A stretch of DNA of 33,680 nt from a virus (Duplodnaviria; Heunggongvirae; Uroviricota; Caudoviricetes): IMG/VR virus record IMGVR_UViG_2526164670_000016, positions 1-33,680 of that record. The stretch is one strand, 5' to 3'. The translations under genes were made by a program, and so were the position numbers. A model generated the notes under the pieces. It ran no database searches, was not told the origin of the DNA, and saw nothing but the letters and a program-made list of their open reading frames with translations. Positions 1 through 16,648 of this stretch are shown in pieces. Numbering within the stretch: position 1 is the stretch's first letter; every line of letters starts with the position of its first letter.

Positions 1-1362
1 ATGTTTAAACCGGAACTCCTTTCCCCGGCGGGAACGCTGAAAAATATGCGTTACGCTTTCGCTTATGGCGCAGATGCTGTTTATGCGGGCCAGCCGCGTT
101 ATTCCCTGCGTGTGCGCAACAACGAATTCAACCACGAAAATCTTCAGCTCGGCATCAATGAAGCCCACGCGCTGGGGAAAAAGTTTTATGTCGTGGTCAA
201 CATTGCACCGCACAACGCCAAGCTGAAAACCTTTATCCGTGACCTGAAACCGGTGGTGGAAATGGGGCCGGATGCGCTGATTATGTCCGATCCAGGGCTG
301 ATTATGCTGGTGCGTGAGCACTTCCCTGAAATGCCGATCCACCTTTCGGTGCAGGCTAACGCCGTGAACTGGGCGACGGTGAAATTCTGGCAGCAAATGG
401 GCCTGACCCGCGTGATCCTCTCTCGCGAGCTGTCGCTGGAAGAGATTGAAGAGATCCGCAATCAGGTGCCGGATATGGAGATCGAGATCTTCGTTCACGG
501 CGCGCTGTGCATGGCCTACTCCGGTCGCTGCCTGCTCTCTGGCTATATCAACAAGCGCGACCCGAACCAGGGCACCTGCACCAACGCCTGCCGCTGGGAG
601 TACAACGTCCAGGAAGGGAAAGAAGATGATGTTGGCAACATCGTACACAAGTACGAGCCGATTCCGGTGCAAAATGTTGAGCCGACGCTGGGTATCGGCG
701 CACCAACCGACAAAGTGTTTATGATCGAAGAGGCCCAGCGTCCGGGCGAGTATATGACCGCGTTTGAAGATGAGCACGGCACTTACATCATGAACTCGAA
801 AGATCTGCGCGCCATCGCCCATGTAGAACGCCTGACCAAAATGGGCGTGCATTCGCTGAAAATCGAAGGTCGTACCAAATCTTTCTACTATTGTGCACGC
901 ACCGCACAGGTTTACCGCAAAGCTATCGATGACGCCGCTGCGGGAAAACCGTTCGATACCAGCCTGCTGGAAACTCTGGAAGGTCTGGCGCATCGTGGCT
1001 ATACCGAAGGTTTCCTGCGTCGTCATACTCACGACGATTATCAGAACTACGAATACGGTTATTCAGTTTCTGACCGCCAGCAGTTTGTTGGTGAGTTTAC
1101 CGGTGAGCGCAAGGGGGACCTCGCGGCGGTAGCGGTGAAAAATAAATTCTCCGTTGGCGACAGCCTTGAGCTGATGACGCCGCAAGGCAACATTAATTTT
1201 ACCCTTGAGCACATGGAAAACGCCAAAGGCGAAGCTATGCCGATAGCACCAGGCGATGGTTATACTGTGTGGCTCCCGGTCCCGCAGGATCTTGAGCTCA
1301 ATTACGCGCTGCTGATGCGTAATTTCTCCGGGGAAACCACGCGTAATCCCCACGGTAAGTGA
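1..1362 (+). CDS. yegQ: U32-family peptidase-like protein YegQ (tRNA hydroxylation protein TrhP family), 453 aa
   Basis: Full-length ORF from ATG at position 1; protein recognised as E. coli YegQ from memory; high-GC host-like composition; followed by cyaR as in E. coli K-12. Confidence 0.9.
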   Translation: MFKPELLSPAGTLKNMRYAFAYGADAVYAGQPRYSLRVRNNEFNHENLQLGINEAHALGKKFYVVVNIAPHNAKLKTFIRDLKPVVEMGPDALIMSDPGLIMLVREHFPEMPIHLSVQANAVNWATVKFWQQMGLTRVILSRELSLEEIEEIRNQVPDMEIEIFVHGALCMAYSGRCLLSGYINKRDPNQGTCTNACRWEYNVQEGKEDDVGNIVHKYEPIPVQNVEPTLGIGAPTDKVFMIEEAQRPGEYMTAFEDEHGTYIMNSKDLRAIAHVERLTKMGVHSLKIEGRTKSFYYCARTAQVYRKAIDDAAAGKPFDTSLLETLEGLAHRGYTEGFLRRHTHDDYQNYEYGYSVSDRQQFVGEFTGERKGDLAAVAVKNKFSVGDSLELMTPQGNINFTLEHMENAKGEAMPIAPGDGYTVWLPVPQDLELNYALLMRNFSGETTRNPHGK

Positions 1363-1446
1363 TTAATTTCGATTATTTTTCCCGGATGGAAAATTCTTAG
1401 AAACCGATCACATACAGCTGTATTTATTAAGGTTATCATCCGTTTC

Positions 1447-1533
1447 GCTGAAAAACATAACCCATAAAATGCTAGCTGTACCAGGAACCACCTCCTTAGC
1501 CTGTGTAATCTCCCTTACACGGGCTTATTTTTT
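1447..1533 (+). ncRNA. cyaR: CyaR (RyeE) Hfq-dependent small RNA, about 87 nt
   Basis: Sequence GCTGAAAAACATAACCCATAAAATGCTAGCTGTACCAGGAACCACCTCCTTAGCCTGTGTAATCTCCCTTACACGGGCTTATTTTTT matches my recollection of CyaR, including the CCUCC seed-like motif and the terminator hairpin (CCTGTGTAA / TTACACGGG) plus U-run. Confidence 0.8.
1507..1533. other. P2-type attachment core (attL/attR copy), 27 bp, overlapping the 3' end of cyaR
   Basis: AATCTCCCTTACACGGGCTTATTTTTT is the reverse complement of the 27-nt P2 att core AAAAAATAAGCCCGTGTAAGGGAGATT as I recall it; prophage genes begin immediately to the right. Confidence 0.6.
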
Positions 1534-1573
1534 GCCTGTAATCTACTGAAATAAATGGATTTATTTCTTACAA

Positions 1574-1611
1574 TGTCCACACATTGACCACATCAAACAA
1601 ACCCCGTCCAC
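1574..1611. promoter_or_regulatory. Candidate integrase arm-type binding sites (direct repeats TGTCCACA at 1574-1581 and GTCCACA at 1605-1611)
   Basis: Two direct copies of the reverse complement of TGTGGACA, which I recall as the P2 Int arm-site consensus, about 30 bp apart next to the att core. Confidence 0.35.
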
Positions 1612-1626
1612 AAACGGGGTTTTTTA
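1600..1626 (+). terminator. Rho-independent terminator-like hairpin (AACCCCGT / ACGGGGTT, then TTTTTT)
   Basis: 8-bp GC-rich stem, 6-nt loop and a run of six T on the plus strand, about 70 bp downstream of cyaR. Confidence 0.5.
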
Positions 1627-1678
1627 ATACTTTCCCCTCCCCCTTCGCTGTAGATCCTTTTATTAAAACTTCATGCAT

Positions 1679-1980
1679 CATTTTGCAAAACCCAGAGCAC
1701 AGCAAACCAGCCGCCAGCCCGCGCCGCGCAAGGCTTCGACATATCCGCGACCCAAAACTACCAGATGCCACCGAGTCATTTTGATCGTCACGAAAACCAA
1801 AACGATCCTTTTAAAAACATCATGTTATCCAGTCGGTTAGCGACTGGCGACGCGGTGACTTTTGCAAAGTGCTGCAAATCTTTGCGCAGCGTGCAAACGC
1901 CCGCAGGATACAAAAGCCCAGCAGCGGCGCAGGCTGGCGGGGTGCTTTGCGCAAAATTTCTTTTGCAAAATTTTTATGAT
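1679..1980. repeat. Non-coding att-adjacent region with repeated TTTGCAAA / TTTGCGCAAA palindromic motifs
   Basis: TTTTGCAAAA near 1681, 1860 and 1961, TTTGCGCAAAA near 1946, plus related TGCAAA units; the ORFs predicted here overlap each other and lack ribosome-binding sites. Confidence 0.4.
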
Positions 1981-2071
1981 CCAAACTGCGCAGGCGGGTG
2001 CGGTGTAGTGCCGTTTCCGTCTTGGATCCGCTTCCGTCTGCCTGCTGTCGCTTACGCTGTGGGCCGCTGTT

Positions 2072-2108
2072 GAACGAACGAAAGAAAGGCCGCACGGTGG
2101 CGGCCTTT
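2072..2108 (-). terminator. Rho-independent terminator at the end of the minus-strand tail operon (possibly bidirectional)
   Basis: Hairpin AAAGGCCGC-ACGGTG-GCGGCCTTT at 2085-2108; on the minus strand it is followed by TTTCTTTCGTTCG, about 65 bp after the stop of the 2175-3899 gene. Confidence 0.55.
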
Positions 2109-2174: not shown

Positions 2175-3899
2175 TCAGGCTATCAGGGGACCGTATTTGC
2201 TTTTCAATGTATCGGTTTTAGTGGCCGCTGCGGTGAACTGCGCAGCCTGCCCGCTGGCCCCTGTATTGGGGTGAGTATGTGACGCGGCGGTCTCTGCCAG
2301 TTCCCTCACCACGTCCAGGGTGTCAGTGAGTAGTGTCAGTACGTTAATTTCTTCGCTTCCCAGTTTTACCACCGGGGCAATCAGCTGTTGCGCCTGGGCC
2401 ACACTTCGGCGGATACCGCTGATTTTCTCAGTCAGTGCGCCGCTGACGTTTGACGTGACATTCCCTTTCACGTCGTCTGTAACATCGCCCGCGACGTCCC
2501 GTTTTGCGTTCCGGCCAACACTGACGGAATTGTCCTTGCTGCAGGTTACTGTCAGGTTGCCGGATGTGCCGATACTGTAATCACCCTCGCTGATATGGAC
2601 CACCGCCCCGGCCAGAAGAGTGGCCGTGCCAAGCACGGTTGTTTTATCCGTTGCCTGGACCGTAGTTTCACGGACAACCACTTTGCGGATCTCTTCGTCG
2701 GTGGTGACTTCGCGCATCATGGAGTTTTCGCGGATTGTCTGGTCCGTCTGGCGTTCCCAGTCTCCGGCAACCGTCACGCGCTGCGATACACCATCGCGCT
2801 GTTGCTGCAACTGCTCGCCGGGTTTAACCGCTGGCAGGTTATGACCCTCCGCCATAATCTGGCGCACGAAGGGCTTATCCTGCCGCCCCTCAGTGAACCC
2901 GATTTCAACCAGCGTGCCAGGGGGCGGAAACTGGAACATTCCCGACTCGCTGCCCGCCATTGGTACAGGTAGCGGAACGGCAGAATAAACCGGCGTATTT
3001 GCGGCTGGCTTGCCGTATTCGTCAAGCAGCTGGAGATCCACGGCATAGCGCGGGCGGAATGGATCGGCAATATTACCCCCTGAAACATCCTCGCTTGGCG
3101 CTTCCACCCTGGCGAATTTTGGAAGATGCAGGCCGCTTGCCAGCTCCGGGAATGCGTTTTCAATCTGCCGCTGAATGGGTGATTTTTGCAATGGCTGGCC
3201 GTTGGCTTTGTTGCGTGGCTGCCAGGTGATTGTCATGTCGTCGTTATTTAGCCGGACCTGGTTTAACCGCTGGCCGTTCACCTCAGCACCCGGGCGCAGG
3301 CTCTGAATCATCGGCACAACCATTGAATTGCCGCCTGCCGATGCCTGGCTAAATTCGTGCGGGATCTCTACTGGTTTACCCGCAAAAAGACTGTGCTCAG
3401 CAGCACCGACGAAGACATCCCCGTCCGGCAGCTGATACCAAAGATAATCCGTCATTGAAAATGCTCGGCCCAGACTGGCAAAAAGCTGGTAGCCCGTGCC
3501 GCTGTGCGTAAAGTGGGGGATCGGTTTATCTGCATAAGCAGCGCCGACCGGCGTTGTGACGGTCAGCCCGCTTTGCTCACTTATCCAGTCAGTAATCTGG
3601 CGCAACGTTGGATGCTGGAAAGAACACGGCCACAATTTATCAAAGATGCCGACCAGCTCACGCACGAACAACCGGCATGTTCCATTATCAGCAGGCTGTG
3701 ACCGTTCGACGTACCCGGTAAACCAGCGCAGGACCAGACCATCATAACCAACATCGATACGCACCATTTTGCCGGTGTAATCTGTCTCTGTCCCCGCCGT
3801 AATAAACCCCCGACCGCACGCGTTCAGCTCCAGCACGATATTGCAGTCAATCAGATGGACCGGATCAGAGGAAAGGTACAGGCGTTTAATTGGTTTCAT
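2175..3899 (-). CDS. Baseplate hub-spike fusion protein (gpD/gp27-like hub fused to gpV/gp5-like spike), 574 aa
   Basis: Last gene of the tail operon next to att; length is roughly P2 D plus V; C-terminal segment (GTLVEIGF..., ...HTHPNTGASGQ) resembles spike proteins from memory. Family assignment not confirmed by search. Confidence 0.55.
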   Translation of the reverse strand: MKPIKRLYLSSDPVHLIDCNIVLELNACGRGFITAGTETDYTGKMVRIDVGYDGLVLRWFTGYVERSQPADNGTCRLFVRELVGIFDKLWPCSFQHPTLRQITDWISEQSGLTVTTPVGAAYADKPIPHFTHSGTGYQLFASLGRAFSMTDYLWYQLPDGDVFVGAAEHSLFAGKPVEIPHEFSQASAGGNSMVVPMIQSLRPGAEVNGQRLNQVRLNNDDMTITWQPRNKANGQPLQKSPIQRQIENAFPELASGLHLPKFARVEAPSEDVSGGNIADPFRPRYAVDLQLLDEYGKPAANTPVYSAVPLPVPMAGSESGMFQFPPPGTLVEIGFTEGRQDKPFVRQIMAEGHNLPAVKPGEQLQQQRDGVSQRVTVAGDWERQTDQTIRENSMMREVTTDEEIRKVVVRETTVQATDKTTVLGTATLLAGAVVHISEGDYSIGTSGNLTVTCSKDNSVSVGRNAKRDVAGDVTDDVKGNVTSNVSGALTEKISGIRRSVAQAQQLIAPVVKLGSEEINVLTLLTDTLDVVRELAETAASHTHPNTGASGQAAQFTAAATKTDTLKSKYGPLIA

Positions 3900-3906
3900 C
3901 GTTTAA

Positions 3907-4449
3907 TTACCCCAGCGCATCGTTGACCGGCTTTAAGACCTTTTCTTCAAACCAGCTCATTTTGTCGGCTGGTTCATCAGCACCTGCAGCCGGACCCGCG
4001 CCCTTTGCCCCTGTTTGCCTGGTGGTGGCCGTCGCGTTGCCTTTTCTGGCCTGTCGTTTTTCCGGGACGCTGCCTTTTTCACGCAGGGTGAAACTTACCT
4101 GCCAGGCAAGGCGATCCTCCTGCGGTACGGCATCAATCTGACCGGTGAACGTGGCTTCACGAAGGTTGATAGCCGTTGCCGTCGCATTGGCAACACGGTA
4201 CTTTTTCAGTGCGCCGCTGGCTTCGGTTGCGGATGCCAGCTGGAAAAGCCGCTGTAAAACGGCTTCATCGTCGAATGTCACCAGACCCGACACGCGCAGC
4301 TCTTTGGCCTTGATACCCTGTTCAGCATTGGCCGTGCTCGATGTCTGGCCCGACTGGTCCTTCTCCTGAAACTGCATGGAAGGTGAAACCAGCATGTTCT
4401 GCATGGCGATCCCTTCACCATCAAGCGCGAGTAATGCGGTCTGGCTCAT
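3907..4449 (-). CDS. Tail/baseplate-associated protein, function unassigned, 180 aa
   Basis: ORF in the tail operon between Tfa-like and hub-spike genes; GC content matches the surrounding structural genes; no family recognised. Confidence 0.4.
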   Translation of the reverse strand: MSQTALLALDGEGIAMQNMLVSPSMQFQEKDQSGQTSSTANAEQGIKAKELRVSGLVTFDDEAVLQRLFQLASATEASGALKKYRVANATATAINLREATFTGQIDAVPQEDRLAWQVSFTLREKGSVPEKRQARKGNATATTRQTGAKGAGPAAGADEPADKMSWFEEKVLKPVNDALG

Positions 4450-5143
4450 GTAGCATCCTCCCTAAGTCAGATAACGAATCCCCGATAAACATCATCGCGG
4501 CGGTATGCACTGCCGTTGTTTGCGGGATGCATTTCAGCAATTCAGCGGCAGCAACGGCATAACTCCCGCTGTAACTGAATGAAAAAATATTCGCACTGGC
4601 GGCTTTCAGGTCGTCCAGTCCCTGGCTGAGTGAGGACAGCAAACCGGCCCGTTCCTGAATAAATCCCGTCACCTGGTTTTTTAGATCTGTTGTGGTGGTA
4701 CTGACTGCGGCGGCCAGCTGCGCGGCGGCAACACGCTGGGCATTCAGCGCCAGCCGGTTGGTTGAGACTGATAACGGCGCACTGGCTGGCAATACATCGG
4801 CTTTAACCGGCAACTGCATTTTTACCGTGCTGAGTTCTGCGGCGGCTGCCGCCATGCGGCTTACCTGCGTAAAAGCGGGGGCAGGAAATACGGTGGACAG
4901 TTTATTCAGCCCCTGCATAAATGCGTCGTGGGTATTCTCCGCTACCATCATGACGATGACATCGCCGCTACCGCCACCGGATAACAGCTTTTTAGCAAGA
5001 TATTCCATCGCATTGGCCGGACTAAGATAAGCGCCTGAATCCGTGGACTGACCCAGCCCATACACCCACGGATGGGCCGGAATGATTGAACAGGATAATG
5101 CCGACATATCATCGGCAATCCTTATAATTGAATCACGCCACAT
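4421..5143 (-). CDS. Tail-module protein, function unassigned (about 240 aa from the ATG at 5143; track ORF extends to a TTG at 5191)
   Basis: Long ORF in the tail operon; ATG at 5143 has GGAG about 10 nt upstream and overlaps the Tfa stop by 11 nt; no family recognised. Confidence 0.35.
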   Translation of the reverse strand: MWRDSIIRIADDMSALSCSIIPAHPWVYGLGQSTDSGAYLSPANAMEYLAKKLLSGGGSGDVIVMMVAENTHDAFMQGLNKLSTVFPAPAFTQVSRMAAAAAELSTVKMQLPVKADVLPASAPLSVSTNRLALNAQRVAAAQLAAAVSTTTTDLKNQVTGFIQERAGLLSSLSQGLDDLKAASANIFSFSYSGSYAVAAAELLKCIPQTTAVHTAAMMFIGDSLSDLGRMLHEPDRITRA

Positions 5144-5570
5144 CGGCAGGTTGCTCCGGCCAGACAATATCTGTCGCTGAGTCGGTATCAATGCGCATCA
5201 GCGATACCCTGTATTCACGCCAGGCAGTAAAAAGCGCTTTTTCTGCGTCCGTCGCTTTACCCAGATCAACGGCATCCTGCAAAGGTGCCAGGATATTGCT
5301 GGCCGCAGCCATCAGGGCAGATTTTTGCGTCTCAGCCCTTACGATTGATTCTTCTTCAGAAAGCGGCAGGGGGTCAGAAAGGACCGGCTGACCATATTCA
5401 TTTGGGATGATGATACGCCCTGAACTCTTATCAATCAGATACTGATACCAGCGCTCAGAAATCAACAAGGCGTCAGCAGGCCAGCCCAGTTCCGATTTTT
5501 CATAATCTGGCTTCAACGAAAGGAAGAAAAATCCATTCATGGAAGCACTGTAATAATATTGCTCATCCAT
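5133..5570 (-). CDS. Tail fibre assembly protein (Tfa / P2 gpG-like chaperone), 145 aa
   Basis: Small ORF directly downstream of the tail fibre gene (4-bp gap); sequence resembles Tfa-family proteins; position is conserved. Confidence 0.7.
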   Translation of the reverse strand: MDEQYYYSASMNGFFFLSLKPDYEKSELGWPADALLISERWYQYLIDKSSGRIIIPNEYGQPVLSDPLPLSEEESIVRAETQKSALMAAASNILAPLQDAVDLGKATDAEKALFTAWREYRVSLMRIDTDSATDIVWPEQPADVA

Positions 5571-5573
5571 TTT

Positions 5574-7496
5574 TTAATATCCCGTTGCCAGCCAGAACAA
5601 AGGAAAGCCCTGGTTTGCGTTAAGCCTTGCCGTCGTATTGGAATATTGCGACACCGAACATTCGAGCGTCCCGGCCACATTCGAGGTAAAAGGCGTGACC
5701 TGAATATTCCGGCACGCATTCGGGAATGCGATCGGGAACGTAATATTTTGATAACCGGACGTCTGGTTCGTGTAACCCCACTGACGGATCCTTCCTGTTG
5801 TTCCGTCGCGCTCCCAGCCGTTTTGCCCCAGGCTGGCCGTATTTTTCAGGTTATAGCGTGCGTCGCTCTCGGCTTTTGTATACGACCCAATCGACCCCGC
5901 CGAAATGGTGATGTTTGCTGTACCGTTAAATGCCACGCCGTTGATGGTGCGGGCGGTTTGCAATTGTGACGCTGAAACCGCATTACCATTTGACGCAAGA
6001 GCGCCAATCTCTGCCGGGGTGGGCTTGTTCGCCACATCATAGGCTTTTGTCCATGCAGACCAGGTGCCACCATAAAGCGTTCGGGCATAACTGCGGGAAT
6101 TGTTGTACACGCGATAAATTTGCGTGATTCCGGCATGCTTAAGGACTTCAAGAGAACCCGCGATCGCCTCCGGATAATTCGTCCCGGTTTGCGCCTGCGC
6201 GTTCGCGGGCTGGTAATAAAGCCCTGGCGTGGTGTAGTTGTTCAGATTTGCTGCATTACCAATCCCTTCGGCCAACCGAAAAATATCAGACGGGAAAAGA
6301 TCGATATTACTCGATAGCGCTCGACCGTTAACCGTTCGTGTTGAGGGCACGCGACTATTAGCATTATCGTTAGCCGCCTTAACTGCTTTCGGCGTCGCGG
6401 CGACGGCTTCCGACTCGCTGTCGGTGGCGCTGCTCAGTTGAATAATCCCTTTCTGCGCTGTCGTAGCGTCCTGCGCGGTGTATTTACCTTTCGCCAGGTC
6501 ATAGGTTGCCTTAACCGCTTTCGGCGTTGCCGCTACTTCTTCAGAATCGCTATCCGTGGCGCTGCTTAATTGCGTGAATCCCTTTGCGGTTGTGGTGGCG
6601 TCCGGGTGGTTGCGTGATTGTTCGTGTTTTTTCAGCGCATCACTGGCCTGTTGCTCGTTCAGCGTACCTTTTGGACGAAGATCGGTAATGACGCCGTTTG
6701 CGTCGATACTCGCAAGGGCAAACACGAAATGTTGCTCACCATTCTGCACGTAATCTTTAAGGTCGGCGGCAACCGTGATTTTGCTTTGTACCGCCCAAAT
6801 GCTCGTAAGCGTTCCCATCCACGCCACATCCAGCCAGACCTTAACCGGCTTTGTTGACACGGTAATATTCTGGTTTGCGGCCAACACTGAACGCAGACCG
6901 GCAAGGTATCCAGTACCTTTAGTGACAAAATACTGGGTGCCTGTTTTCGCGACCAGATAACCCGCATCAAAGAACGACGCCGCACCATACAGATCGATAT
7001 TTTCGCGGCGCTGGCGTTCATCCATTGCCGCCAGACGGGCAGTAAAATCAATCTGCCATGTCTCTGCCGGGGTGGTAATTTCCGTTGCTTCCCTGGCTCC
7101 GCTGTATTCCATCAGCATGGAACGGACCAGAACGTTTCCCTGCTGGCCGTTCGCATTTTTGATTTTACGCTGGGTCGGGGCATGAATAATCATCGCCAGT
7201 GTACCGGTGGCTTTATTTGCCAGACCGATCCAGTTGAAATCAAAATCACCCACATCTGCCCCCATCGTGACGGAATAAACGACAGAGTTTTCATTCACAA
7301 CACCGGATTTACTCACCACCTGACGATAAACAATTTTATCCGCTGCGGGTGCTGTCTCGGTATTATCAATCGGCTTATCAGCATCCAGCCCCGGAATATA
7401 CGCGAAAATAAATTCATCCAGCGCGACGGGCTGATTATTAATAGCCTGCTGGGCTTTCCACTCTGTAAATGCTTTTGTAATAACAGCCTGTGACAT
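5574..7496 (-). CDS. Tail fibre protein (P2 gpH-like), 640 aa
   Basis: Contains the duplicated motif HEQSRNHPDATTTAKGFTQLSSATDS...AATPKAVKA that I recall from P2 gpH; Gly/Asn/Thr-rich C-terminal receptor-binding region. Confidence 0.8.
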   Translation of the reverse strand: MSQAVITKAFTEWKAQQAINNQPVALDEFIFAYIPGLDADKPIDNTETAPAADKIVYRQVVSKSGVVNENSVVYSVTMGADVGDFDFNWIGLANKATGTLAMIIHAPTQRKIKNANGQQGNVLVRSMLMEYSGAREATEITTPAETWQIDFTARLAAMDERQRRENIDLYGAASFFDAGYLVAKTGTQYFVTKGTGYLAGLRSVLAANQNITVSTKPVKVWLDVAWMGTLTSIWAVQSKITVAADLKDYVQNGEQHFVFALASIDANGVITDLRPKGTLNEQQASDALKKHEQSRNHPDATTTAKGFTQLSSATDSDSEEVAATPKAVKATYDLAKGKYTAQDATTAQKGIIQLSSATDSESEAVAATPKAVKAANDNANSRVPSTRTVNGRALSSNIDLFPSDIFRLAEGIGNAANLNNYTTPGLYYQPANAQAQTGTNYPEAIAGSLEVLKHAGITQIYRVYNNSRSYARTLYGGTWSAWTKAYDVANKPTPAEIGALASNGNAVSASQLQTARTINGVAFNGTANITISAGSIGSYTKAESDARYNLKNTASLGQNGWERDGTTGRIRQWGYTNQTSGYQNITFPIAFPNACRNIQVTPFTSNVAGTLECSVSQYSNTTARLNANQGFPLFWLATGY

Positions 7497-7507
7497 AGGT
7501 TTTTCCT

Positions 7508-8107
7508 CTACTTCAAACTTGCGCTGTATGTTATTTGGGGCTGGTTATTCACATCGCCCAGGGTGGCAGGCCAGCAAATATATTCCCCCTGATACCAGCC
7601 AATATTGATATTCAGTGGCAGGGATGTGATCACTTCAAACTGGTAACGGCGGCATGTACGCCCATATTTACGGATGATTTCCAGCAGGAGATCGCCATTT
7701 TCCGCAATCTGGCTGTTTGTCACCCGAACAACAATCACGTCCCAGTCGAGTCCGTCCTGCCGCTCCAGCAATTCAACGTAACCAATCCCCAGTCGCTCAA
7801 AAATGGCAATAAAGCCCGCCACCTCTCCGGCCTGCTGCGCATTGATAAATGCGTAGCTCACCCGTTTGCGGAAGATGTCGAGCGGCTCCCCCTTAAACCG
7901 ATCGATATCGCGTTCCCAGGCAATCAGGTTTAACAGCGGTTCGGGGCAGACCAGCGGGTCAAACTGCTTTAACGGCCAGGAGATCCACCCGTACACCTGC
8001 GACCAGAACTTCACGCAGGCCCGCACCAGCCTGGCGGGGTCGCCTTTGTTCAGCCACGACGGCAATTTCAGACCGGCAAGCAACTTTGAAAACTCAGTCA
8101 TTCTCAA
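7508..8107 (-). CDS. Baseplate/tail protein (P2 gpI-like or Mu gp48/DUF2313-like), 199 aa
   Basis: Position between the J-like baseplate gene and the tail fibre gene; overlaps the J-like stop; size and position fit gpI/gp48-type proteins. Confidence 0.5.
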   Translation of the reverse strand: MRMTEFSKLLAGLKLPSWLNKGDPARLVRACVKFWSQVYGWISWPLKQFDPLVCPEPLLNLIAWERDIDRFKGEPLDIFRKRVSYAFINAQQAGEVAGFIAIFERLGIGYVELLERQDGLDWDVIVVRVTNSQIAENGDLLLEIIRKYGRTCRRYQFEVITSLPLNINIGWYQGEYICWPATLGDVNNQPQITYSASLK

Positions 8108-9278
8108 TCTCCACCGTTAACCCTGACAGGCGCGGGACCGACAGTTCGCTGACAATATCCGTCAGTGAAAAATGCAGTGAATCGACAACCGGAAAAGCTT
8201 TGTGGATCTCGCGGCCCAGATTCGAAAAGGAATAGCGCGAATAGGGCTGCGTCTTCTTAACGTCGTAATTGGCGTTCTCGCGAAACGCGCAACGAATCAG
8301 GTCGGTAATACCGGTTTTTAACGCGCTCAGGTCTTCCGCTTCCATGTTTTCCACGCTTTTGACGTATACCGTTACCGTCAGGGTGTGGCTGGTTTCCGGC
8401 ATGGTATAACACTGCAAATCATCACCGTGTCCGTGGTGGCCCTGGGTATTCACATAGTCGTTAACCGCATCAATAAAGGGTTGTGATATTTCGCCACTGT
8501 CCAGCAACAGGTAAGCATTTGCCGTACCCGGTCCCCGTGGGGCATCGTGCAAAAAGTAAATGCGATCAACGCTCAGGCCCAGCACGCTGGCAATCATGCT
8601 GCGGTAAATAGCGTCAGAGTGATAATTCCCCACCAGATTAAACTGGTTGCGGGTACGGTCGCGCAGCTCGTCGTCGCTTTCCTCGTTGGCTCCCGGCGTA
8701 ATCAGCCATTCGTCCTCATTGACCGCGCTGGCAATCCCGGCCACCGCAACGGGTAAAATCCGGTAATAGCCTGGCGCAAGGTTATAGCCGCTGCCGGTGC
8801 CGGTCGCCGTGACGGTAACCAGCCCGCTTTCAACCCCGGCAGGCAGCGTCACGTCTTCATTCACCGCCAGCACATAAACCACGCCGTTAATGCGCTCGGT
8901 TTGCACCAGTGTTCCGGCAGGCACGACGACCACATCCGCCGCGTTCAGCTTGTAGAACCGCAGCACGCCAGCGGCAGCGCTGGCCGGTTTAGGCACGATA
9001 TGAACCGCCCAGGCCAGCAGGCGCAGCATGGGACCGGTGGCCGTCGCAACAAACATATTGCGCAGGACCACATCGATCATCGCCGCCCGCAGCCATAACA
9101 CCGGCGTGGTGACAATCTTCGAAATCAGCCGCCAGAAAGGCGACATCCTCGACGTGTTTGTAACGAACCCTTCCGCCTGCACGGTGGCTTTAAACGCTGC
9201 CGTAATTTCGGCCTCTGTCGCGGGCATCCCGCTGTCATTCAGTACCTTTTCGAAATCAACGTCGGGTTTCTCAGTCAT
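8094..9278 (-). CDS. Baseplate J-like protein (P2 gpJ / Mu gp47 family), 394 aa
   Basis: Size and position immediately after the small W/gp46-like gene (ATGACTGA start/stop overlap). Confidence 0.65.
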   Translation of the reverse strand: MTEKPDVDFEKVLNDSGMPATEAEITAAFKATVQAEGFVTNTSRMSPFWRLISKIVTTPVLWLRAAMIDVVLRNMFVATATGPMLRLLAWAVHIVPKPASAAAGVLRFYKLNAADVVVVPAGTLVQTERINGVVYVLAVNEDVTLPAGVESGLVTVTATGTGSGYNLAPGYYRILPVAVAGIASAVNEDEWLITPGANEESDDELRDRTRNQFNLVGNYHSDAIYRSMIASVLGLSVDRIYFLHDAPRGPGTANAYLLLDSGEISQPFIDAVNDYVNTQGHHGHGDDLQCYTMPETSHTLTVTVYVKSVENMEAEDLSALKTGITDLIRCAFRENANYDVKKTQPYSRYSFSNLGREIHKAFPVVDSLHFSLTDIVSELSVPRLSGLTVEIEND

Positions 9279-9607
9279 AGTTAACCTCTGTACTGACAGG
9301 GCCGAAATCGTAGGTTTCCGCCGTGATATACAACCTCGAAAGGGTTTCTTCGGTGATCACTATGGTTCCTGGGACCAGACGTTCGTCGCTTTCCACCAGT
9401 AAGGACAGTTGTGTCAGCACGTCACCGCGCATTGTCGGGCTACGTTCACCGATCAGGCGGGTGGTGATACCGCTTTCCAGAATGCTGTGAATAATGTCCT
9501 GGGTGATGCTGTCGCGGTTATCGCAACGGCGCGGCTCGTTGCCCGCTGTCCAGCGTGAAATCGCCGTCAGTGATCAAAAGGTCGATGTATAACGGTTCGG
9601 TACTCAT
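9271..9607 (-). pseudogene. Small baseplate protein gene (gp46/W-like, about 111 aa) interrupted by a 1-nt frameshift
   Basis: ATG at 9607 overlaps the tape-measure stop (ATGA); frame 0 reads MSTEPLYIDLLITDGDFTLDSGQRAAPLR then stops; the +1 frame continues NEPRRCDNRDSITQDIIHSILESGITTRLIGERSP...TEVNYD and ends in a TGA overlapping the J-like ATG. One extra base near the GGGC run (about 9540) explains it. The track shows no ORF of 60 aa or more here. Confidence 0.5.
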
Positions 9608-11718
9608 CCTGCGTTAAGCTCCTGCCATTCAGCCAACTGGGCCGGGGTGATTCCATTGGGGGCGTTGATGTAGGTATCGCCCCACGTTTTACGGTTATCA
9701 ACAGCGGTTTTGCTGTCGCTTTTAACTTGACTCATCAGGCCGCCGCGTGGGATGCCTGCATTAATTCGGTTCCCCGTCAGCACGGACGGGCTGTTCAGCT
9801 TCGATGAACCTGCAGCACTGTCAGGAATGACCGCATTTGCCGGAACGGCAGCCGCTGCCGATGGCGAAACGGTTTTCAGGTCGATGTTGACGCCGGGGAT
9901 CTTGTTTAACTTCTCAACAATCCAGTTATAGGTAGACGCAAAGGTATTTTTGAGGACGTCAAAAAGTTTGCTGAATACCCCGCCGATGGTTTGTGCGAAC
10001 CCTTCAAAGGTGGCAAGCGGGGAAAGACCGGCAAAGAAATCAACCACCACGGCCCAGCCGTCTGTGATGGACTGCCAGACCTGCGCAAACACCTGGCCTA
10101 CCTGTTCAGCGACCGACATCACCCAGGCAAAAGCCGACGTATCCATGATTGCTGCTGCCAGTTCTTCCCAGTGGGTGATGACGTACCAGACCCCCACGGC
10201 CAGAAGTGCCAGCCCGGCAACGATCAGGGTGATCGGACTCATCAGGAGTTGCATTGCCGCCCCGGCAAACATGGTCGCCGCACCGTAAACCCGCATGGCA
10301 ATGGCTCCGGCCTTTAACGCGATATTCCATGCAGCAAGCGCGATGCGGCAGACGCCAGTCCACAGCGCCAGTAATTTTGACTGGATCCACAATGCAGCCA
10401 GACCGATGCGCGTCGTCAGCAGGGACAGACGCAACAGGTTTAGCGTCCATAACAGGAGTTTCCATGCCCCGCCCAGCACTTTTGCAATTGCGGCCAGCCC
10501 TGTCATGGTGAAGCCAAAGCCCCCCATCACGATATTGACCGCCGCCCCGGCCAGCCCGAAGGACAACACGCCCAGGGTGATGTAACCCAGCCAGCGGGCA
10601 ATATTCGGGAACATATCCAGCCAGCGGGCAAATTTTGTCCCCACGTCGGCAATACGGTTCATCAGCGGCGACAGGATAGGGATCAGCGTGTTACCAATCG
10701 CCACACGAATGGCAAAGAATGTCGCTTTGATACGTTCCCACGGCTCGGCCATTCGTTCGGCCATTTCCTGGGCGCGTTTCATCCCGTCATTTCGGCCCAG
10801 TTCGGTAATGCTGCGATTTAATTTATCCTGCTGGCCGTACAGCTTTTTGATAACGTCAGCGCCGCCACCGAATGCGGCGTCCAGCGCCTGTTGTGCCTTG
10901 ACGTTCCCTTCAATGCTCTGCCCGTATTTGCTCTGGAGTTTTTGCAGAATGTCACCCATCGGCAGCATTTTGCCGGTGGCATCGACAAAGCTCATACCCA
11001 GCTTTTCAGCGGCAGCCGGGGCGCTGCGTAAAAACTGCTCGTAGATCCCGCTGGCCTCAGTACCCAGCGTGCGCGAAAGTGTCCCCAGGACGACGAACTG
11101 TTCATCCAGGCTGACGCCAAAGTCAGCACCGGCGCTTTTCGTCCCCTCGATAAGCTCCTGCATGGTCTGCATTTTCACGCCAAAGTTTTGCACCATGTAC
11201 GCCGTTTTCCCTGCCAGCTCTTCGGCAAAACGCACATGGCCCAGACTGGACAGCTCCGCGTTGAAGCGTGACGCCATCGCGCCGATGTATTCGCCTGCCT
11301 CTTCGCCGCTGGCCTTGACGCCTGCGGCCAGGGTATTGGCCGCGATGGTAACGCGGGGCAGGTCCAGATCGGACAGGCCCGCCATTGCGCCTTTCATCGC
11401 GTAGCTTGACCGGACCACATCAACGGCCCCTTTGCCGTAGCGCATACTGAATCGCATGGCTTCGCCGGACAGACGCTTCAGCGCGTCCTCTGCCACGCCT
11501 TTGGAACCCACTTCTGCAAGCGCGGCGTTCATCTCATACGCCGGACCCACCACGCCCGCGATGGACTGCGCCACGCCCCAGACAGCAGCCGCACCGATCC
11601 CGATTTTTGTAAAAGACGCCTGCGATTTTTCGGCAAAGCCGGACAGCGAAGACTGGGCCGTCTTTAATGGCCGCGTCAGCTTATCGATCAGGCTCAGGGT
11701 AAAATCCAGGTGGCTCAT
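9604..11718 (-). CDS. Tail tape measure protein, 704 aa
   Basis: Largest ORF in the tail module; Ala/Gly-rich with a long hydrophobic central segment; preceded by a frameshifting chaperone gene pair. Confidence 0.8.
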   Translation of the reverse strand: MSHLDFTLSLIDKLTRPLKTAQSSLSGFAEKSQASFTKIGIGAAAVWGVAQSIAGVVGPAYEMNAALAEVGSKGVAEDALKRLSGEAMRFSMRYGKGAVDVVRSSYAMKGAMAGLSDLDLPRVTIAANTLAAGVKASGEEAGEYIGAMASRFNAELSSLGHVRFAEELAGKTAYMVQNFGVKMQTMQELIEGTKSAGADFGVSLDEQFVVLGTLSRTLGTEASGIYEQFLRSAPAAAEKLGMSFVDATGKMLPMGDILQKLQSKYGQSIEGNVKAQQALDAAFGGGADVIKKLYGQQDKLNRSITELGRNDGMKRAQEMAERMAEPWERIKATFFAIRVAIGNTLIPILSPLMNRIADVGTKFARWLDMFPNIARWLGYITLGVLSFGLAGAAVNIVMGGFGFTMTGLAAIAKVLGGAWKLLLWTLNLLRLSLLTTRIGLAALWIQSKLLALWTGVCRIALAAWNIALKAGAIAMRVYGAATMFAGAAMQLLMSPITLIVAGLALLAVGVWYVITHWEELAAAIMDTSAFAWVMSVAEQVGQVFAQVWQSITDGWAVVVDFFAGLSPLATFEGFAQTIGGVFSKLFDVLKNTFASTYNWIVEKLNKIPGVNIDLKTVSPSAAAAVPANAVIPDSAAGSSKLNSPSVLTGNRINAGIPRGGLMSQVKSDSKTAVDNRKTWGDTYINAPNGITPAQLAEWQELNAG

Positions 11719-11719
11719 A

Positions 11720-11917
11720 TCAGTTTCCGTTAAATGCGATTGCTATCCCTTCCGCCGTCTTACTGGCGCGGGTCTGGGCGAAATATTCATCCAGCCACAG
11801 GGCGCGGGCGATGCTTTCTTCGTCGTCGTCTTCGTGCGGGAGGTAATAGCGGCGCAGGGCAAGGTATTGCTCAAGCACATTCTTGCGAATGGCCGCCACC
11901 CGCGCCGTCAGTTTTTT
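11720..11917 (-). other. E'-like extension frame reached by programmed -1 ribosomal frameshift at slippery heptamer A_AAA_AAC (minus strand, 11911-11917)
   Basis: The -1 frame is open for 64 codons (KKLTARVAAIRKNVLEQYLALRRYYLPHEDDDEESIARALWLDEYFAQTRASKTAEGIAIAFNGN) from the heptamer, placed just before the stop of the 89-aa ORF, to a TGA one nucleotide before the tape-measure ATG. Confidence 0.55.
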
Positions 11918-12177
11918 ACTTCGATCTCAAGTTTGGGGGAGTAAATCTCGTTCACCTTCTCGACGATCTGCATTTCGCAACCCGGATAATCTTCCATCAG
12001 CTTGTTGAGCGCCTCTTTACACTCGGCATCAACAATGCGGCCCAGATAAGTCACCATCGGGGCAACCTTATTGGTCATGGTCATTTCGTTAAGCAGGTTG
12101 TTAAACGCGGTTTTATTCGGCTCAAAGCTCAGATTTACGCCCGCCACGGTCATGGCGATTTTTTTCGATTTGCTCAT
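11908..12177 (-). CDS. Tail assembly chaperone (P2 gpE-like / lambda G-like), 89 aa
   Basis: Small ORF immediately upstream of the tape measure gene; ends ...EIEVKN with the slippery heptamer inside its last codons. Confidence 0.55.
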   Translation of the reverse strand: MSKSKKIAMTVAGVNLSFEPNKTAFNNLLNEMTMTNKVAPMVTYLGRIVDAECKEALNKLMEDYPGCEMQIVEKVNEIYSPKLEIEVKN

Positions 12178-12470
12178 TGTGCTAATTCCTTACGTTGTCG
12201 AATTATGCCCACCAGGGCGTTATGTCGGGCGGCGCAGTCGGTATACATCAGCCGGTAGGCTTTCAGCGCCGCGTCAAAGTCATTTCCGGTCGGTCCGGCC
12301 AGACGTGGCAGCGTGACCGGGCAAAGTGTCAGCTGGTTTTCCTGATAATTTTCGTTCGGCTTGATCTGCACTTTCGTTGAACAACCGGACGTAATCATCA
12401 GAAGCGCAAACGTTGCTAAAAACCGGCTTAATGGTTTCCGTGCGGATAACCCGTTCCGTGTGAATTTCAT
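12174..12470 (-). CDS. o-spanin (Rz1-like outer-membrane lipoprotein), up to 98 aa
   Basis: N-terminal signal-like segment with lipobox-like LMITSGC; overlaps the 3' half of the i-spanin gene in another frame; start uncertain. Confidence 0.5.
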   Translation of the reverse strand: MKFTRNGLSARKPLSRFLATFALLMITSGCSTKVQIKPNENYQENQLTLCPVTLPRLAGPTGNDFDAALKAYRLMYTDCAARHNALVGIIRQRKELAQ

Positions 12471-12663
12471 TGGCCCTCAGCTCCGCGAGTTTTGCTTCCA
12501 GCGCTTCACCAGACTGCTGTGTCACCTCAACAACAATCTGGCGCGTTTGTTCTGCCGCTTCACTGGCAGCGAGTTTCAGCTTTGCGTCGTGCCAGTCATG
12601 CGCCTGCCAGCCCGCTGACATCGCAGCGACGAGAATCAGCAAAAGACCCAGCAAATTGCGCAT
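12280..12663 (-). CDS. i-spanin (Rz-like inner-membrane protein), 127 aa
   Basis: N-terminal transmembrane helix (LLGLLLILVAAMSAGW) followed by a charged coiled-coil-like periplasmic domain; directly downstream of the endolysin gene. Confidence 0.55.
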   Translation of the reverse strand: MRNLLGLLLILVAAMSAGWQAHDWHDAKLKLAASEAAEQTRQIVVEVTQQSGEALEAKLAELRANEIHTERVIRTETIKPVFSNVCASDDYVRLFNESADQAERKLSGKPADTLPGHAATSGRTDRK

Positions 12664-13001
12664 CAGCGAACCCCGTTATGCTCAAGACTGAAATGGTTGC
12701 CGTCCGGCTTACTGAAACGTCCACCCCACGATCCGCCGATAGATTCCCAGTATTCGCCCAGGGGGCGGTATGCGGCGCTGTCGGCCTGGTATTCGCCGTT
12801 AATAAACAGGTTAAAATCCACCGCGAGGCGCTGGGTATGCAGGCTGTTAGCAATGCCACTCCCTTTTTTTGCGTTAAGCGCGGCCTGTTCCGGCGTGCGG
12901 TACGCTTCGCCAAACGTCAGGCGATAGCCCTTTTCTTCGGCAAAATGAATCAGGCTGGCGATCATCACCGTGAAAAGTTGCTGTTTTTCACTCAGTTTCA
13001 T
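12663..13001 (-). CDS. Endolysin, L-alanyl-D-glutamate peptidase-like (peptidase M15 family), 112 aa
   Basis: Small protein with Zn-binding-like motifs (SLHTQRLAVD, DGNHFS) typical of M15 phage endolysins; sits between holin and spanins. Confidence 0.65.
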   Translation of the reverse strand: MKLSEKQQLFTVMIASLIHFAEEKGYRLTFGEAYRTPEQAALNAKKGSGIANSLHTQRLAVDFNLFINGEYQADSAAYRPLGEYWESIGGSWGGRFSKPDGNHFSLEHNGVR

Positions 13002-13299
13002 TGCGCTTGCTCTCCCATCGCTTGATATACATATCCAGGCAGCGCTTTAACCCTGCCTCAATAAACGCGCTTCCCAGAATGCCCAGGGCGCAGGCCAGCC
13101 CAATGACGACCAGTTCCGGCATATCGGGGAATTTCAGCAGAGGGATTGCGGCCAGCGGTGCGACCGCAGATCCCAGAATCATCCGCCCGACCAGCAGGCG
13201 GGTTGTGATTCGCTCATTGCCGACCATCAGTTGCCCCAGGCCAATCACGGCCCCGATAAGCAACAGCTTTTCAAGCAGTGACGTTTCTCCGTTCATCAT
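12988..13299 (-). CDS. Holin, 103 aa
   Basis: Three predicted hydrophobic helices and a charged C-terminus (KRWESKRNETE); immediately upstream of the endolysin, overlapping by 14 nt. Confidence 0.6.
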   Translation of the reverse strand: MMNGETSLLEKLLLIGAVIGLGQLMVGNERITTRLLVGRMILGSAVAPLAAIPLLKFPDMPELVVIGLACALGILGSAFIEAGLKRCLDMYIKRWESKRNETE

Positions 13300-13303
13300 C
13301 GTG

Positions 13304-13759
13304 TCAGCCTTTCAAATCGCGAGTGTCGCGGGCTGACAGGTACGGCACGCCGTCAATCGCGACAAAGTCCGGGCTTGTCACCATGAATTTAATTTTCTTC
13401 GTGGTTTTGCTGGCCTCGTTGGGGTTGATGTTGACGATGTCGGACAGCGTCGGAACGCAGCCAAACACCTCGATTTTTTCTTCGTCGTCCCCGGCGTTGG
13501 CGTAGAACAAAAAGTCCTTTGCCGGAATGGATCGCCAGGAACCTGCGGCACGGGCCACGGCGGTAAACTTTTTAAAGTTCTGGGAGTCGACTTCGACTTC
13601 CACATCCGCCGAAACTGACCCTTTCGTGTGGCCGTTCGGGATGCCACGCGACTGCGCAACGGCGCTGTTATCCGTAATGGTGACGGTGGCGTTTTCGACG
13701 TGAATCATGATGCTGTCGTAGTTCACATCGAACGATCCACCGCTGATACGTTCAGTCAT
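13304..13759 (-). CDS. Putative tail tube protein, 151 aa
   Basis: Position directly downstream of the putative sheath gene; size fits tube proteins; no strong motif recognised. Confidence 0.45.
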   Translation of the reverse strand: MTERISGGSFDVNYDSIMIHVENATVTITDNSAVAQSRGIPNGHTKGSVSADVEVEVDSQNFKKFTAVARAAGSWRSIPAKDFLFYANAGDDEEKIEVFGCVPTLSDIVNINPNEASKTTKKIKFMVTSPDFVAIDGVPYLSARDTRDLKG

Positions 13760-13762
13760 TGA

Positions 13763-14905
13763 TTAGCTCTCCAGTGAGGTGTCCAGTTCGATGCTGACGC
13801 TGATTTCTTTCGCGCTCTCATACGGTCGAACCACAAGGTAAATCTGCACCGCTTCGCTACTGGTCCAGGTGATGGTGATGTCGCCGTCCTTTGGTGGCTT
13901 CACTTCGCCCGGAAATTCGACGCCATTGATCTGGGTTGAAATCGCCATTTCGCGCAGCGGCTTGCCGAAATAGGTTTCATGCGCGGCGATGCTGCCCGGT
14001 GTGCTGTTCAGTGAACGATCGGCAATTTTTGGGATTGCACGCAGACGGACGCGGCGGGAGGCTTTATCAACCACGCGCACGTTTTCAATCACCTGATAAT
14101 CACCGCCTTCAACGTCCAGGGTGCGACCGTCAGCCCAGTAGATGCCGTCATAATCGTGATACCACATCGGCACGCTGTAGCGGTTCGCCTGCAAGGACTG
14201 CAACACGGCCAGATCAATTTCGGCCCCCGTCCCGTCGACCGGCAGGCCGTCGCTCCCCAGCGCGGTGACTGCGCCGGTTGCGACGCGGGCGGGGCTGTCT
14301 GCCACCGTCACCGAACGGTTACACAGGCGACCGACCAGGACGCCGGGTTCGTTACCCCACAGACGCGGGACCAGTTGCACCCCAGGCGATGCAATACCGT
14401 CCTGGAGTGCTGCCAGACGCGTCACATAGTCGCTCCACGCTTCGTCCTTTTCCGGCCCACCCACAGCAAGGGCAAACCAGATAAAACGCCCAAAACTGGC
14501 CTGTAAGGTGACGCGCATTTCCGTTGCACGGTTGATGGTGGCCTTGTCGGTGGTATCAAAAGCCAGAAGGATCCCTTCCACGGATGCCACGCTCTGGGCC
14601 TGTTTGACCGCGCTCATCCAGTCTTCGTCTGGTTTATAGCCCTCGGCTTCCGTGTCCGGTTGTTCCAGTACGTGCACATAAGCAAACCAGTTCTGACCGG
14701 CGTTATTGGCCGCAGCGGCCACAATGCTTTTTAACAGGCTGTCTTTGTCGCCCAGGGCTTTATCCAGATCGCTGTCGGTATTCAGCGACTGGGTTTTCCC
14801 GATGTTAGTGTCGCCGTAACCCACAAAGAGGATGACGCGCTCGACGTCGTTCGTTGTGCCGTTGAAGCGGTTTTTCTGACTGACGTTGACTGTAGGCCAG
14901 GTCAT
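13763..14905 (-). CDS. Putative contractile tail sheath protein, 380 aa
   Basis: Position after the R/S-like tail completion genes and before the tube gene; size fits small sheath proteins; family not verified. Confidence 0.45.
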   Translation of the reverse strand: MTWPTVNVSQKNRFNGTTNDVERVILFVGYGDTNIGKTQSLNTDSDLDKALGDKDSLLKSIVAAAANNAGQNWFAYVHVLEQPDTEAEGYKPDEDWMSAVKQAQSVASVEGILLAFDTTDKATINRATEMRVTLQASFGRFIWFALAVGGPEKDEAWSDYVTRLAALQDGIASPGVQLVPRLWGNEPGVLVGRLCNRSVTVADSPARVATGAVTALGSDGLPVDGTGAEIDLAVLQSLQANRYSVPMWYHDYDGIYWADGRTLDVEGGDYQVIENVRVVDKASRRVRLRAIPKIADRSLNSTPGSIAAHETYFGKPLREMAISTQINGVEFPGEVKPPKDGDITITWTSSEAVQIYLVVRPYESAKEISVSIELDTSLES

Positions 14906-14907
14906 TT

Positions 14908-15603
14908 TTACCCCCTGATATGCTGCGCGTTGACGTCCCAGCCGAAGCCGATTGCCTGCATTTGCCGCGCAATAATTTGGTTAAATTCGTCGTTGCTCAC
15001 CCCCAGAAAAACGCGTCCAGGAATATCAATGGTCCATGTGCGTTTTGAGGGTGTGCCTTTCAGTTTTCGAATCAGTAATCCCGCCTGGGCCATGCTCATG
15101 GTTTCCATGATTTGCCTGCTGGACGGCTTAACCCAGCGCTTGCCCTTGCGGGTTTTGTAGCCCAGCGCCCGCAGGCGCTTGGCCTGTCGCGGTAGCGCGG
15201 GCTTGTCAGCCTGCGGCTTGCGCGGGGCGTTACTGGCTTTCATCTGGATCCGTGCGCCGTCCTGCTGGACCGCACCGACCAGACCCGCCGCAATGGGCTT
15301 CGTCCCGTTCCGGTAGTTCCCGCCCTTGAGGTAAATTCTTACCCCCTGAATCTCCGGCATTTCACGCACGGCCAGCAGTTTGGGCAGCCCTTTTAGCATC
15401 TTCCCTTTGCCACGCTTGCGCGGCTCCCACGACGTACCGTCCGGGGCCGCCTGCTGGCGCTGGTGACGTTTTGCCGCTGCAACAATGCCCAGCTTTGCAA
15501 TACGCCATAAAAGGCGCTGGCGCTTACGCGGGGGAAGGTCAGCTTTTGCCAGCGTTTCCCGCATCTGCTTTAGCTGTTGCTGGTTCAGCTCCCCACGGAT
15601 CAC
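14908..15603 (-). CDS. Virion morphogenesis / tail completion protein (P2 gpS-like or Mu G-like), 231 aa
   Basis: Position after the R-like gene; basic, Lys/Arg-rich central insert; weak motif similarity (DGTSWEP) to virion morphogenesis family proteins. Confidence 0.45.
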   Translation of the reverse strand: MIRGELNQQQLKQMRETLAKADLPPRKRQRLLWRIAKLGIVAAAKRHQRQQAAPDGTSWEPRKRGKGKMLKGLPKLLAVREMPEIQGVRIYLKGGNYRNGTKPIAAGLVGAVQQDGARIQMKASNAPRKPQADKPALPRQAKRLRALGYKTRKGKRWVKPSSRQIMETMSMAQAGLLIRKLKGTPSKRTWTIDIPGRVFLGVSNDEFNQIIARQMQAIGFGWDVNAQHIRG

Positions 15604-16076
15604 GACGCGTCACCACGCTGGACAATAAATTCCAGTTGCGACGCCTCCCAGATTTCGGGGTTTACGATGTCCCATTTCTTGCCCTTGAAAGGGATCGGTC
15701 CTTTTTCCACTTCACGCAGGACCAGCGGATCAACCAGCGGGACAACCACATCCAGAATACATGACCCTTCGTCGTCGAACTCCGGGTCCACGGTGGGATC
15801 GGCTAACTTCAGCTCGTCGCGCAGTTCGTTGGCGAATTCATCCACCCAGGCCAGCACCAGGGCATAAATCAGCCCCGGCGAATATTTGCGGTAGGGGAAG
15901 TCATCCCACGACAAACGGGCGGTATAAGTCAGCACCCCGATCCGGCGCTGGTTGTTCCCCAGCGCTTTGGCGTTGCGTACCAGCTCGCAATCCTCCATTG
16001 AACTGGAAAACATCTGCATGGCATCAGGCGGCAGATTTGCCGTAATAAACGCCGTCAGGCTTTCAAGCTGGCTCAT
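15600..16076 (-). CDS. Tail completion protein (P2 gpR-like), 158 aa
   Basis: Immediately after the head completion gene; size and a VLAW-containing motif are similar to gpR from memory. Confidence 0.45.
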   Translation of the reverse strand: MSQLESLTAFITANLPPDAMQMFSSSMEDCELVRNAKALGNNQRRIGVLTYTARLSWDDFPYRKYSPGLIYALVLAWVDEFANELRDELKLADPTVDPEFDDEGSCILDVVVPLVDPLVLREVEKGPIPFKGKKWDIVNPEIWEASQLEFIVQRGDAS

Positions 16077-16606: not shown

Positions 16607-16648
16607 GGTTGATGCCTCCCCCGCGCCCGTCCCGGCTAGCGGGAGTCT

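Follow-up and report, generated by a model that had tools for sequence, protein, structure and literature searches.

The interval 1447-1626 of the window (the whole 33,680-nt stretch of DNA analysed here) is, judged by its sequence, the junction between the host small-RNA gene cyaR and a prophage that entered by P2-type site-specific recombination. It is held with high confidence that this junction results from P2-type integration by Int and IHF in the terminator of cyaR, that the gene is preserved, the phage core and the host attB being one sequence, and that the prophage is now probably immobilised by a copy of IS1414. An earlier note, made from the letters of the window, had placed a prophage at the P2 att core inside the 3′ end of cyaR, and the core, the IHF site, the P arm, the phage genes and the integrase all fit that placement. 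The finding is already known, cyaR being a published P2-type insertion site: 'cyaR RNA' is given as the insertion site of P2-type prophages in Escherichia coli W, K-12 and B (PMC3032704). The result is a confirmation of the cyaR 3′ end as a P2-type attachment site, with little import beyond annotation.

On the host side, yegQ (trhP) occupies positions 1-1362 (+) upstream of cyaR, as given by the open reading frame list and the K-12 annotation, and the annotated yegQ of several complete E. coli genomes is 100% identical to the copy in the window. Since several complete E. coli genomes match the window at 100% over 1-1533, the host is an ordinary E. coli. The cyaR gene itself lies at 1447-1533 (+), downstream of yegQ as expected for CyaR/RyeE, and its 87 nt show no differences from the annotated cyaR of K-12 MG1655. 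The Rfam family CyaR_RyeE (RF00112) aligns over its full model (positions 1-85 of 85) to 1445-1530 (+), with 100.7 bits against a gathering score of 47, and is the sole Rfam family above threshold across the whole window. The gene ends in an intrinsic terminator at 1498-1533 (+), recognised by a terminator scan and by RNA folding (-19.8 kcal/mol, z -3.0) and made of an 11-bp stem and a 6-nt loop (1498-1525) followed by the U-rich tail UUAUUUUUU (1526-1533); the intrinsic terminator with the U tail needed by CyaR for Hfq binding is thus in place.

The att core, which forms the left prophage junction, comprises the last 27 nt of cyaR (1507-1533, +; AATCTCCCTTACACGGGCTTATTTTTT) and runs from the final 2 nt of the terminator's 5′ stem arm through the loop and the entire 3′ stem arm, the U tail included. 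The earlier note had equated it with the reverse complement of the P2 att core, which is what it proves to be: positions 24356-24382 of the P2 record AF063097, annotated 'attP' and 'Int attP core', agree with it at 27/27 positions when that record is read on its other strand. With up to 3 mismatches allowed, the window contains a single copy of the 27-mer (0 expected), and no second att copy is found there at that tolerance. The core is common to phage attP and host attB, and the same 27-mer terminates cyaR in an unoccupied-type site rebuilt from the flanks of the prophage of E. coli GN06156; when the unoccupied-site sequence is set against the window, divergence begins exactly past the core. 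The left boundary of the prophage is 1533/1534. Phage DNA follows directly, as had been claimed, and the first recognisable phage gene, for a baseplate protein, is met at 2175-3899 (-; phrog_2258, E 1.8e-274). The comparison with K-12 that had been proposed as a check finds cyaR identical and the cryptic prophage PR-X annotated in the MG1655 record as starting inside cyaR. That the small RNA stays intact at the junction with a terminator rebuilt by the att core is likewise borne out by the full-length Rfam match, the identity to K-12 and the equality of core and attB; cyaR is unharmed and full-length in this lysogen because core and attB share one sequence.

Over the 90 nt that follow the core on its right, the window can be aligned base for base with the P side of the P2 attP, so that beyond an identical core the annotated P2 sites find their counterparts in the window. 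By homology, an IHF binding site is predicted at 1532-1565 (P2 'protein_bind IHF', 24324-24357) and an Int arm-type site, the P arm, at 1569-1596 (P2 'protein_bind Int, P arm', 24293-24320). The P arm contains two direct repeats with starts 11 nt apart, TGTCCACA at 1574-1581 and TGACCACA at 1585-1592, which both fit, on the other strand, the P2-type arm consensus tgTGGaCa (PMC3448106). In an alignment of ten sequences, either attP or host junctions (the window, GN06156, K-12 PR-X, P2, TP, P2_2H4, P2_4C9, P2_4E6b, YpM46 and 11W), three of which are phages with a wholly different core, GAAATAAAnGGATTTATTTCT of the IHF site and GTCCACACATTGACCACAT of the arm pair are invariant in 10/10 sequences. 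As GTCCACACATTGACCACAT is invariant even among phages with a different core, 1574-1581 and 1585-1592 form the true arm pair, and the arrangement of a P2-type att site, an IHF site and two direct arm repeats beside the core, is present. The earlier note had paired 1574-1581 with 1605-1611; its first repeat stands as the homologue of the P2 P arm, while the second lies in a terminator stem-loop and is not conserved, and TGACCACA at 1585-1592, absent from that note, is a third copy of the motif.

The stem-loop in question is a two-way hairpin terminator of phage origin at 1599-1626, supported by folding, by the terminator scan and by the P2 annotation. It occupies the position of the P2 ogr (F-operon) terminator with a different sequence, and folds with -13.4 kcal/mol on the + strand, where U6 follows, and -15.0 kcal/mol on the - strand, none of 200 shuffles doing as well. 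The octamer cGTCCACa (1605-1612), a 7/8 match to the arm motif, straddles its 5′ stem arm and loop. Were it a genuine third Int arm-type site, Int binding would overlap the phage hairpin terminator, and several points speak for this: the octamer agrees with all strongly conserved positions of tgTGGaCa (PMC3448106), CGTCCACA is the second P-arm repeat in the attP of phage SI7 itself, and three same-strand copies within 39 nt are unlikely by chance, about 0.012 copies being expected in such a stretch (by arithmetic from the window-wide count). The three-copy grouping is a real cluster, although in the window as a whole the motif is not enriched at up to 1 mismatch (20 found versus 23 expected). 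However, the position of the octamer has no homology to any annotated P2 Int site, and the octamer is missing from it in P2, K-12 PR-X, P2_2H4, P2_4C9, HYM1, EC11 and KV7; its start is 20 nt from that of the second repeat, against 11 nt in every verified pair; half of it makes up the terminator stem; and the sole other carrier, GN06156, is a near-identical relative and so provides no independent observation. A third arm-type site is accordingly considered improbable, and the pair 1574-1581 and 1585-1592 is retained as the P arm.

Other candidate features around the P arm were set aside. An Rfam search of 1500-2200 at permissive thresholds returned sub-threshold matches only, the best being to isrJ at 1560-1623 (+) with 23.1 bits, below the gathering score of 37 (E 0.02-0.07), which was treated as chance; isrJ is a Salmonella small RNA, and its match, which takes in both P arm and hairpin, probably owes its score to the terminator alone. 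At 1546-1574 (+), a promoter-like match is at chance level (1 found versus 1.0 expected), and nothing supports gene status for the open reading frames that overlap the P arm, 1568-1771 (-) and 1584-1784 (+).

In the mechanism proposed, a temperate myovirus of the P2 family (Peduoviridae) would insert at the cyaR 3′ end through tyrosine-recombinase site-specific recombination, its attachment site carrying a core nearly identical to the last 27 nt of cyaR. One side of this core would bear the IHF site and the two Int arm-type repeats (the P arm, now 1532-1596), and the other a further two arm repeats (the P′ arm) within the int 3′ end; Int would bridge arm and core sites, IHF would bend the DNA, and strand exchange would take place inside the core. 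As core and attB carry the same sequence, the junction would restore the cyaR terminator from its loop through the 3′ stem arm to the U tail and leave the small RNA unchanged. Int and IHF binding at these sites, the crossover position and the loss of excision discussed below are what we infer from the letters of the DNA.

The other end of such an element can be read in relatives. The prophage of E. coli GN06156 (NZ_CP095529, 2998.7-3031.9 kb), which lies between yegQ-cyaR and yegR, has 94-96% nucleotide identity to the window prophage and an intact int. Its cyaR-side core (locus L004, 1227-1253) is again 27/27, and its yegR-side core, AAACGCCCTTACACGGGCTTATTTTTT (L004, 34361-34387), is 25/27 and lies 80 nt past the int stop codon, with TGTCCACAnnnTGTCCACA of the P′ arm within the int 3′ end. 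The second copy of the P2 core for which the earlier note asked is thus present in this relative, but not as the exact 27-mer. EC11 and HYM1 likewise possess, at the far end of the element, a further core copy accompanied by a P′ arm, and the same AAACG variant appears at their yegR side as in GN06156, so that the five leftmost bases of the cyaR-side core are host-derived. The phage's own core probably matches cyaR at 25/27 positions, and since it probably differs at 2/27, the full identity to P2 at the left junction probably reflects host sequence in part.

EC11 also bears on the crossover. Its cyaR-side copy (locus L016, about 1474-1500) differs in the 3′ stem arm by two substitutions, ACGCAGGC replacing ACACGGGC, which both preserve pairing (U.G to U-A and U-A to U.G), and its yegR-side copy (locus L018) carries the host version, with the standard sequence. 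This reciprocal pattern would fit strand exchange within CCCTTAC, core positions 6-12, and suggests that the cyaR terminator is open to rewriting by the core half that comes from the phage. In KV7 (locus L017, 1634-2854), a P2-type P arm at cyaR is followed by a pseudogene of a group II intron reverse transcriptase/maturase, in place of the phage late genes.

At the right end of the window, the P2-type integrase gene is truncated, with only codons 1-261 at 32437-33219 (+). The encoded part has 86% identity to P2 Int and agrees at 261/261 residues with the GN06156 prophage's Int, which is intact at 335 aa, and DNA similarity to that prophage ends at 33219, codon 261. From 33220 to 33680 (+) follows IS1414 (IS256-like), inserted in int: this stretch, the first 461 nt of the element and the only part of it within the window, is 100% identical over its 461 nt to annotated plasmid copies ('IS256-like element IS1414 family transposase'), and the transposase open reading frame, which carries a Transposase_mut domain (Pfam PF00872), starts at 33291 and runs off the window end. 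The insertion creates a chimeric Int open reading frame of 314 aa. An IS at the right end had been noticed before and is there, from 33220 to the window end, but it sits inside int and not beyond the prophage. The 74 C-terminal codons missing here contain, in GN06156, an H-x-x-R motif and the Tyr of 'MVYAHF', which we take to be catalytic residues of tyrosine recombinases. Because IS1414 removes this catalytic end, self-excision would be unlikely, and the prophage has most likely become immobile, barring help in trans from another P2-type Int; the suggestion that excision could change the cyaR 3′ context therefore fares poorly for this element, whose int is cut after codon 261. The window forms the final 33.7 kb of contig AERU01000033.1 (GCA_000193995.2), which ends inside IS1414, 300 nt past the chimeric open reading frame, so that the second att copy of this very element is unreadable here, and the right end may conceivably have been deleted or inverted through the IS. 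For annotation, the useful points are that cyaR is intact, that the prophage should be flagged as probably excision-defective and that its right end is to be looked for on another contig; biologically, the element is a prophage probably fixed in the chromosome by IS insertion in int.

Between the two ends, about 31.7 kb of contiguous phage genes follow the junction, for a prophage of roughly 32 kb. The late genes (2175-19465, -), assigned from PHROGs and Pfam matches and from 94-96% nucleotide synteny with the RefSeq-annotated GN06156 prophage, cover the capsid, its scaffold, head completion and the small terminase, the tail with its baseplate, fibre, tape measure and sheath, and lysis; the region also encodes a baseplate wedge protein (PHROGs) and an HP1_ORF34 baseplate protein (Pfam). 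Its main break relative to GN06156 is a tail-fibre/assembly segment at 5288-6517, with about 67% identity or no match, which is the usual exchange of a host-range cassette. The large terminase, the portal and an Ogr/Delta late activator follow on the + strand (19643-22835; PHROGs, Pfam PF04606), the activator lying at 22509-22835 after the portal gene and not beside att as in P2. A replication nickase of gpA type and a Dam-type methylase (26429-29910, -; phrog_91, 4.9e-239; Pfam), a Cox-like excisionase/repressor (31600-31875, -; phrog_272, 7.2e-45; Pfam Phage_Cox) and a C-type immunity repressor (31992-32291, +; Pfam HTH_3) precede int. The set of structural and replication genes typical of a complete phage is present.

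A cargo island (22944-26309) sits between the Ogr/Delta gene and the replication genes, with contents that differ from the GN06156 cargo. According to PADLOC and Pfam it encodes a KAP NTPase (PADLOC candidate system PDC-S20, 6.7e-70), a 218-aa protein of no family (24394-25050, -), a DUF488 protein (PADLOC PDC-M45B, 1.2e-54) and a DuOB protein, and it is probably an anti-phage defence hotspot. In GN06156, an AbiH abortive-infection gene (L004, 1419-2384) separates the P-arm terminator from the conserved non-coding region; nothing is inserted at the equivalent place in the window (1623-1627), and this att-adjacent position looks like a second cargo hotspot.

The phage non-coding region between att and the late genes (1679-2174) was delimited by alignment with GN06156 and SI7. 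Its highest conservation falls at about 1780-2160, where identity to the GN06156 prophage and to SI7 is about 99%, exceeding that of the flanking genes, with indels of 1 and 7 nt. Two small open reading frames, 1765-2073 (+) and 1820-2095 (-), lack a Pfam match and, given these 1- and 7-nt indels, were treated as non-coding. A late-operon terminator was found at 2085-2108 (-) by the terminator scan, and the stretch holds three TTTTGCAAAA palindromes (1681, 1860 and 1961) together with G-rich direct repeats. A candidate cos (packaging) site lies near 1996-2002: the ends of the SW5 record map to 2001/2002 of the window, and SI7 is without exactly 7 nt (GGTGTAG) near this position. The site could thus lie between the tail genes and att, which is the arrangement of HP1. 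The P2 cos has no significant similarity to 1627-2174, so that the cos idea draws on phage record ends alone.

What kind of phage occupies the site is decided by the genome as a whole. In K-12 the same succession of cyaR, core, IHF site and P arm is followed by a 0.6-kb remnant, and the junction by itself would suit a short cryptic remnant like PR-X (ogrK and a gene D fragment) beside cyaR; yet about 31.7 kb of phage genes from baseplate to int follow the junction here, and the stretch is 95% identical to viable Salmonella phages. A K-12-like remnant is rejected by this gene content and retains practically no probability. An assignment to bacteriophage P2 itself or to a near relative within Peduovirus would be in keeping with the identical core, arm sites of the P2 type and an Int 86% identical to that of P2, and the element does encode a P2-type tyrosine integrase, albeit truncated, together with Cox. 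Against this, the matches found by BLASTN with the whole P2 genome are confined to att (80%), cox-C-int (73%) and a pair of short patches, where genome-wide similarity would mark the species Peduovirus P2; no ogr, nor the ogr-D pair of P2, stands beside att, the Ogr/Delta gene following the portal gene; and the phages that match best, SI7, SW5 and SW3 of Salmonella (Irrigatiovirus), show 95.4% identity over 87% of window 1534-25000. P2 proper is very unlikely and was rejected, membership of the family Peduoviridae being upheld. The high identity over most of the genome is that expected of an SI7-like Irrigatiovirus, with an int/att module that is not shared; since SI7 has a different core and a divergent int/immunity region, the window prophage is best described as an SI7-like body carrying a P2-type int/att module aimed at cyaR. 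It represents a textbook module swap, a P2-type integration cassette in an SI7-like phage, and exchange of integration modules of this kind among P2-like phages has been described (PMC3448106).

A further matter is whether the prophage alters the output of cyaR. Read-through of the cyaR terminator would stop at the hairpin 1599-1626 and yield a lysogen-specific, 3′-extended CyaR of about 180 nt, and the hairpin would also prevent transcription from cyaR entering the phage late region in antisense. In an hfq mutant, a double-terminator assay on a plasmid gave 41% read-through of the cyaR terminator (PMC9765468), the phage hairpin that follows is strong on the + strand with its U6, and the coordinates singled out in the earlier note, 1447-1626, are exactly those of the hypothetical transcript. 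However, the position of the P2 ogr/late-operon terminator suffices to explain the hairpin, and the mature 87-nt CyaR sequence is unchanged; an effect on output by this route is rather unlikely but worth keeping in view. The broader proposition, that cyaR-site prophages are not neutral, through the read-through isoform and, in some lysogens, through a phage-derived core half that rewrites the terminator stem, is more doubtful still. If it held, P2-type phages could tune the termination efficiency or the Hfq loading of a global CRP-dependent regulator. A possible effect of prophage sequence, downstream of or within the cyaR terminator, on CyaR 3′ ends is the sole biological lead of some interest.

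Occupancy of the site was surveyed in 5,426 complete E. coli genomes with an artificial 'empty' site made by joining the cyaR side and the yegR side of GN06156. This query is found in one place in 4,562/5,426 genomes, a count that includes K-12-type remnants of up to 750 nt, with a best match of 99.8% identity; its halves are split in about 860 of the 5,426 genomes (16%), in which a larger insert is present. The P-arm variant of the window type occurs in 24 genomes. The flank of the second core copy of GN06156, positions 34388-34440 of L004, has the same sequence in most E. coli. Within this unoccupied-site flank lies a P2-type P arm in degenerate form, CTGGTCACCGTCTTCCATTGACCACATCGA, whose IHF-site region is deleted, and the degenerate arm is the scar of an older P2-type integration common to most E. 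coli.

Among known systems, the prophages of GN06156 and of about 20 other complete E. coli genomes occupy the same site with 94-96% identity, the GN06156 Int being identical over the retained 261 codons; GN06156, the closest relative with an intact int, differs in that gene, in the AbiH gene beside att and in other tail-fibre and cargo segments. With P2, the window phage shares the 27-nt core, the order core, IHF site, two arm repeats and terminator, the P2-type Int (86%) and Cox; it differs from P2 in the rest of the genome, which is unrelated at the nucleotide level, in the ogr that P2 has beside att, in the terminator sequence and in a phage-borne core that here is probably 25/27. With SI7, SW5 and SW3 it shares the conserved non-coding region beside att and the P2-type TGTCCACA arm repeats; SI7 has another att core and a divergent int/immunity module and should, as its core and int differ, integrate elsewhere. 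K-12 PR-X (ogrK, yegZ), Wphi2 of E. coli W and P2*B of E. coli B share with it both the insertion point in cyaR and the architecture of the junction, PR-X amounting to 0.6 kb of a true P2-type phage against the 31.7 kb or so of SI7-like phage in the window. Phage 186 (tRNA-Ile), Fels-2 and SopE-phi (ssrA) and P2-type prophages at rybB likewise have a core that duplicates the 3′ end of an RNA gene, and the RNA gene survives insertion since the phage core copies its 3′ end (PMC3448106; PMC3032704). In principle, the cyaR case does not differ from phage integration into the 3′ ends of tRNA, tmRNA and other small-RNA genes.
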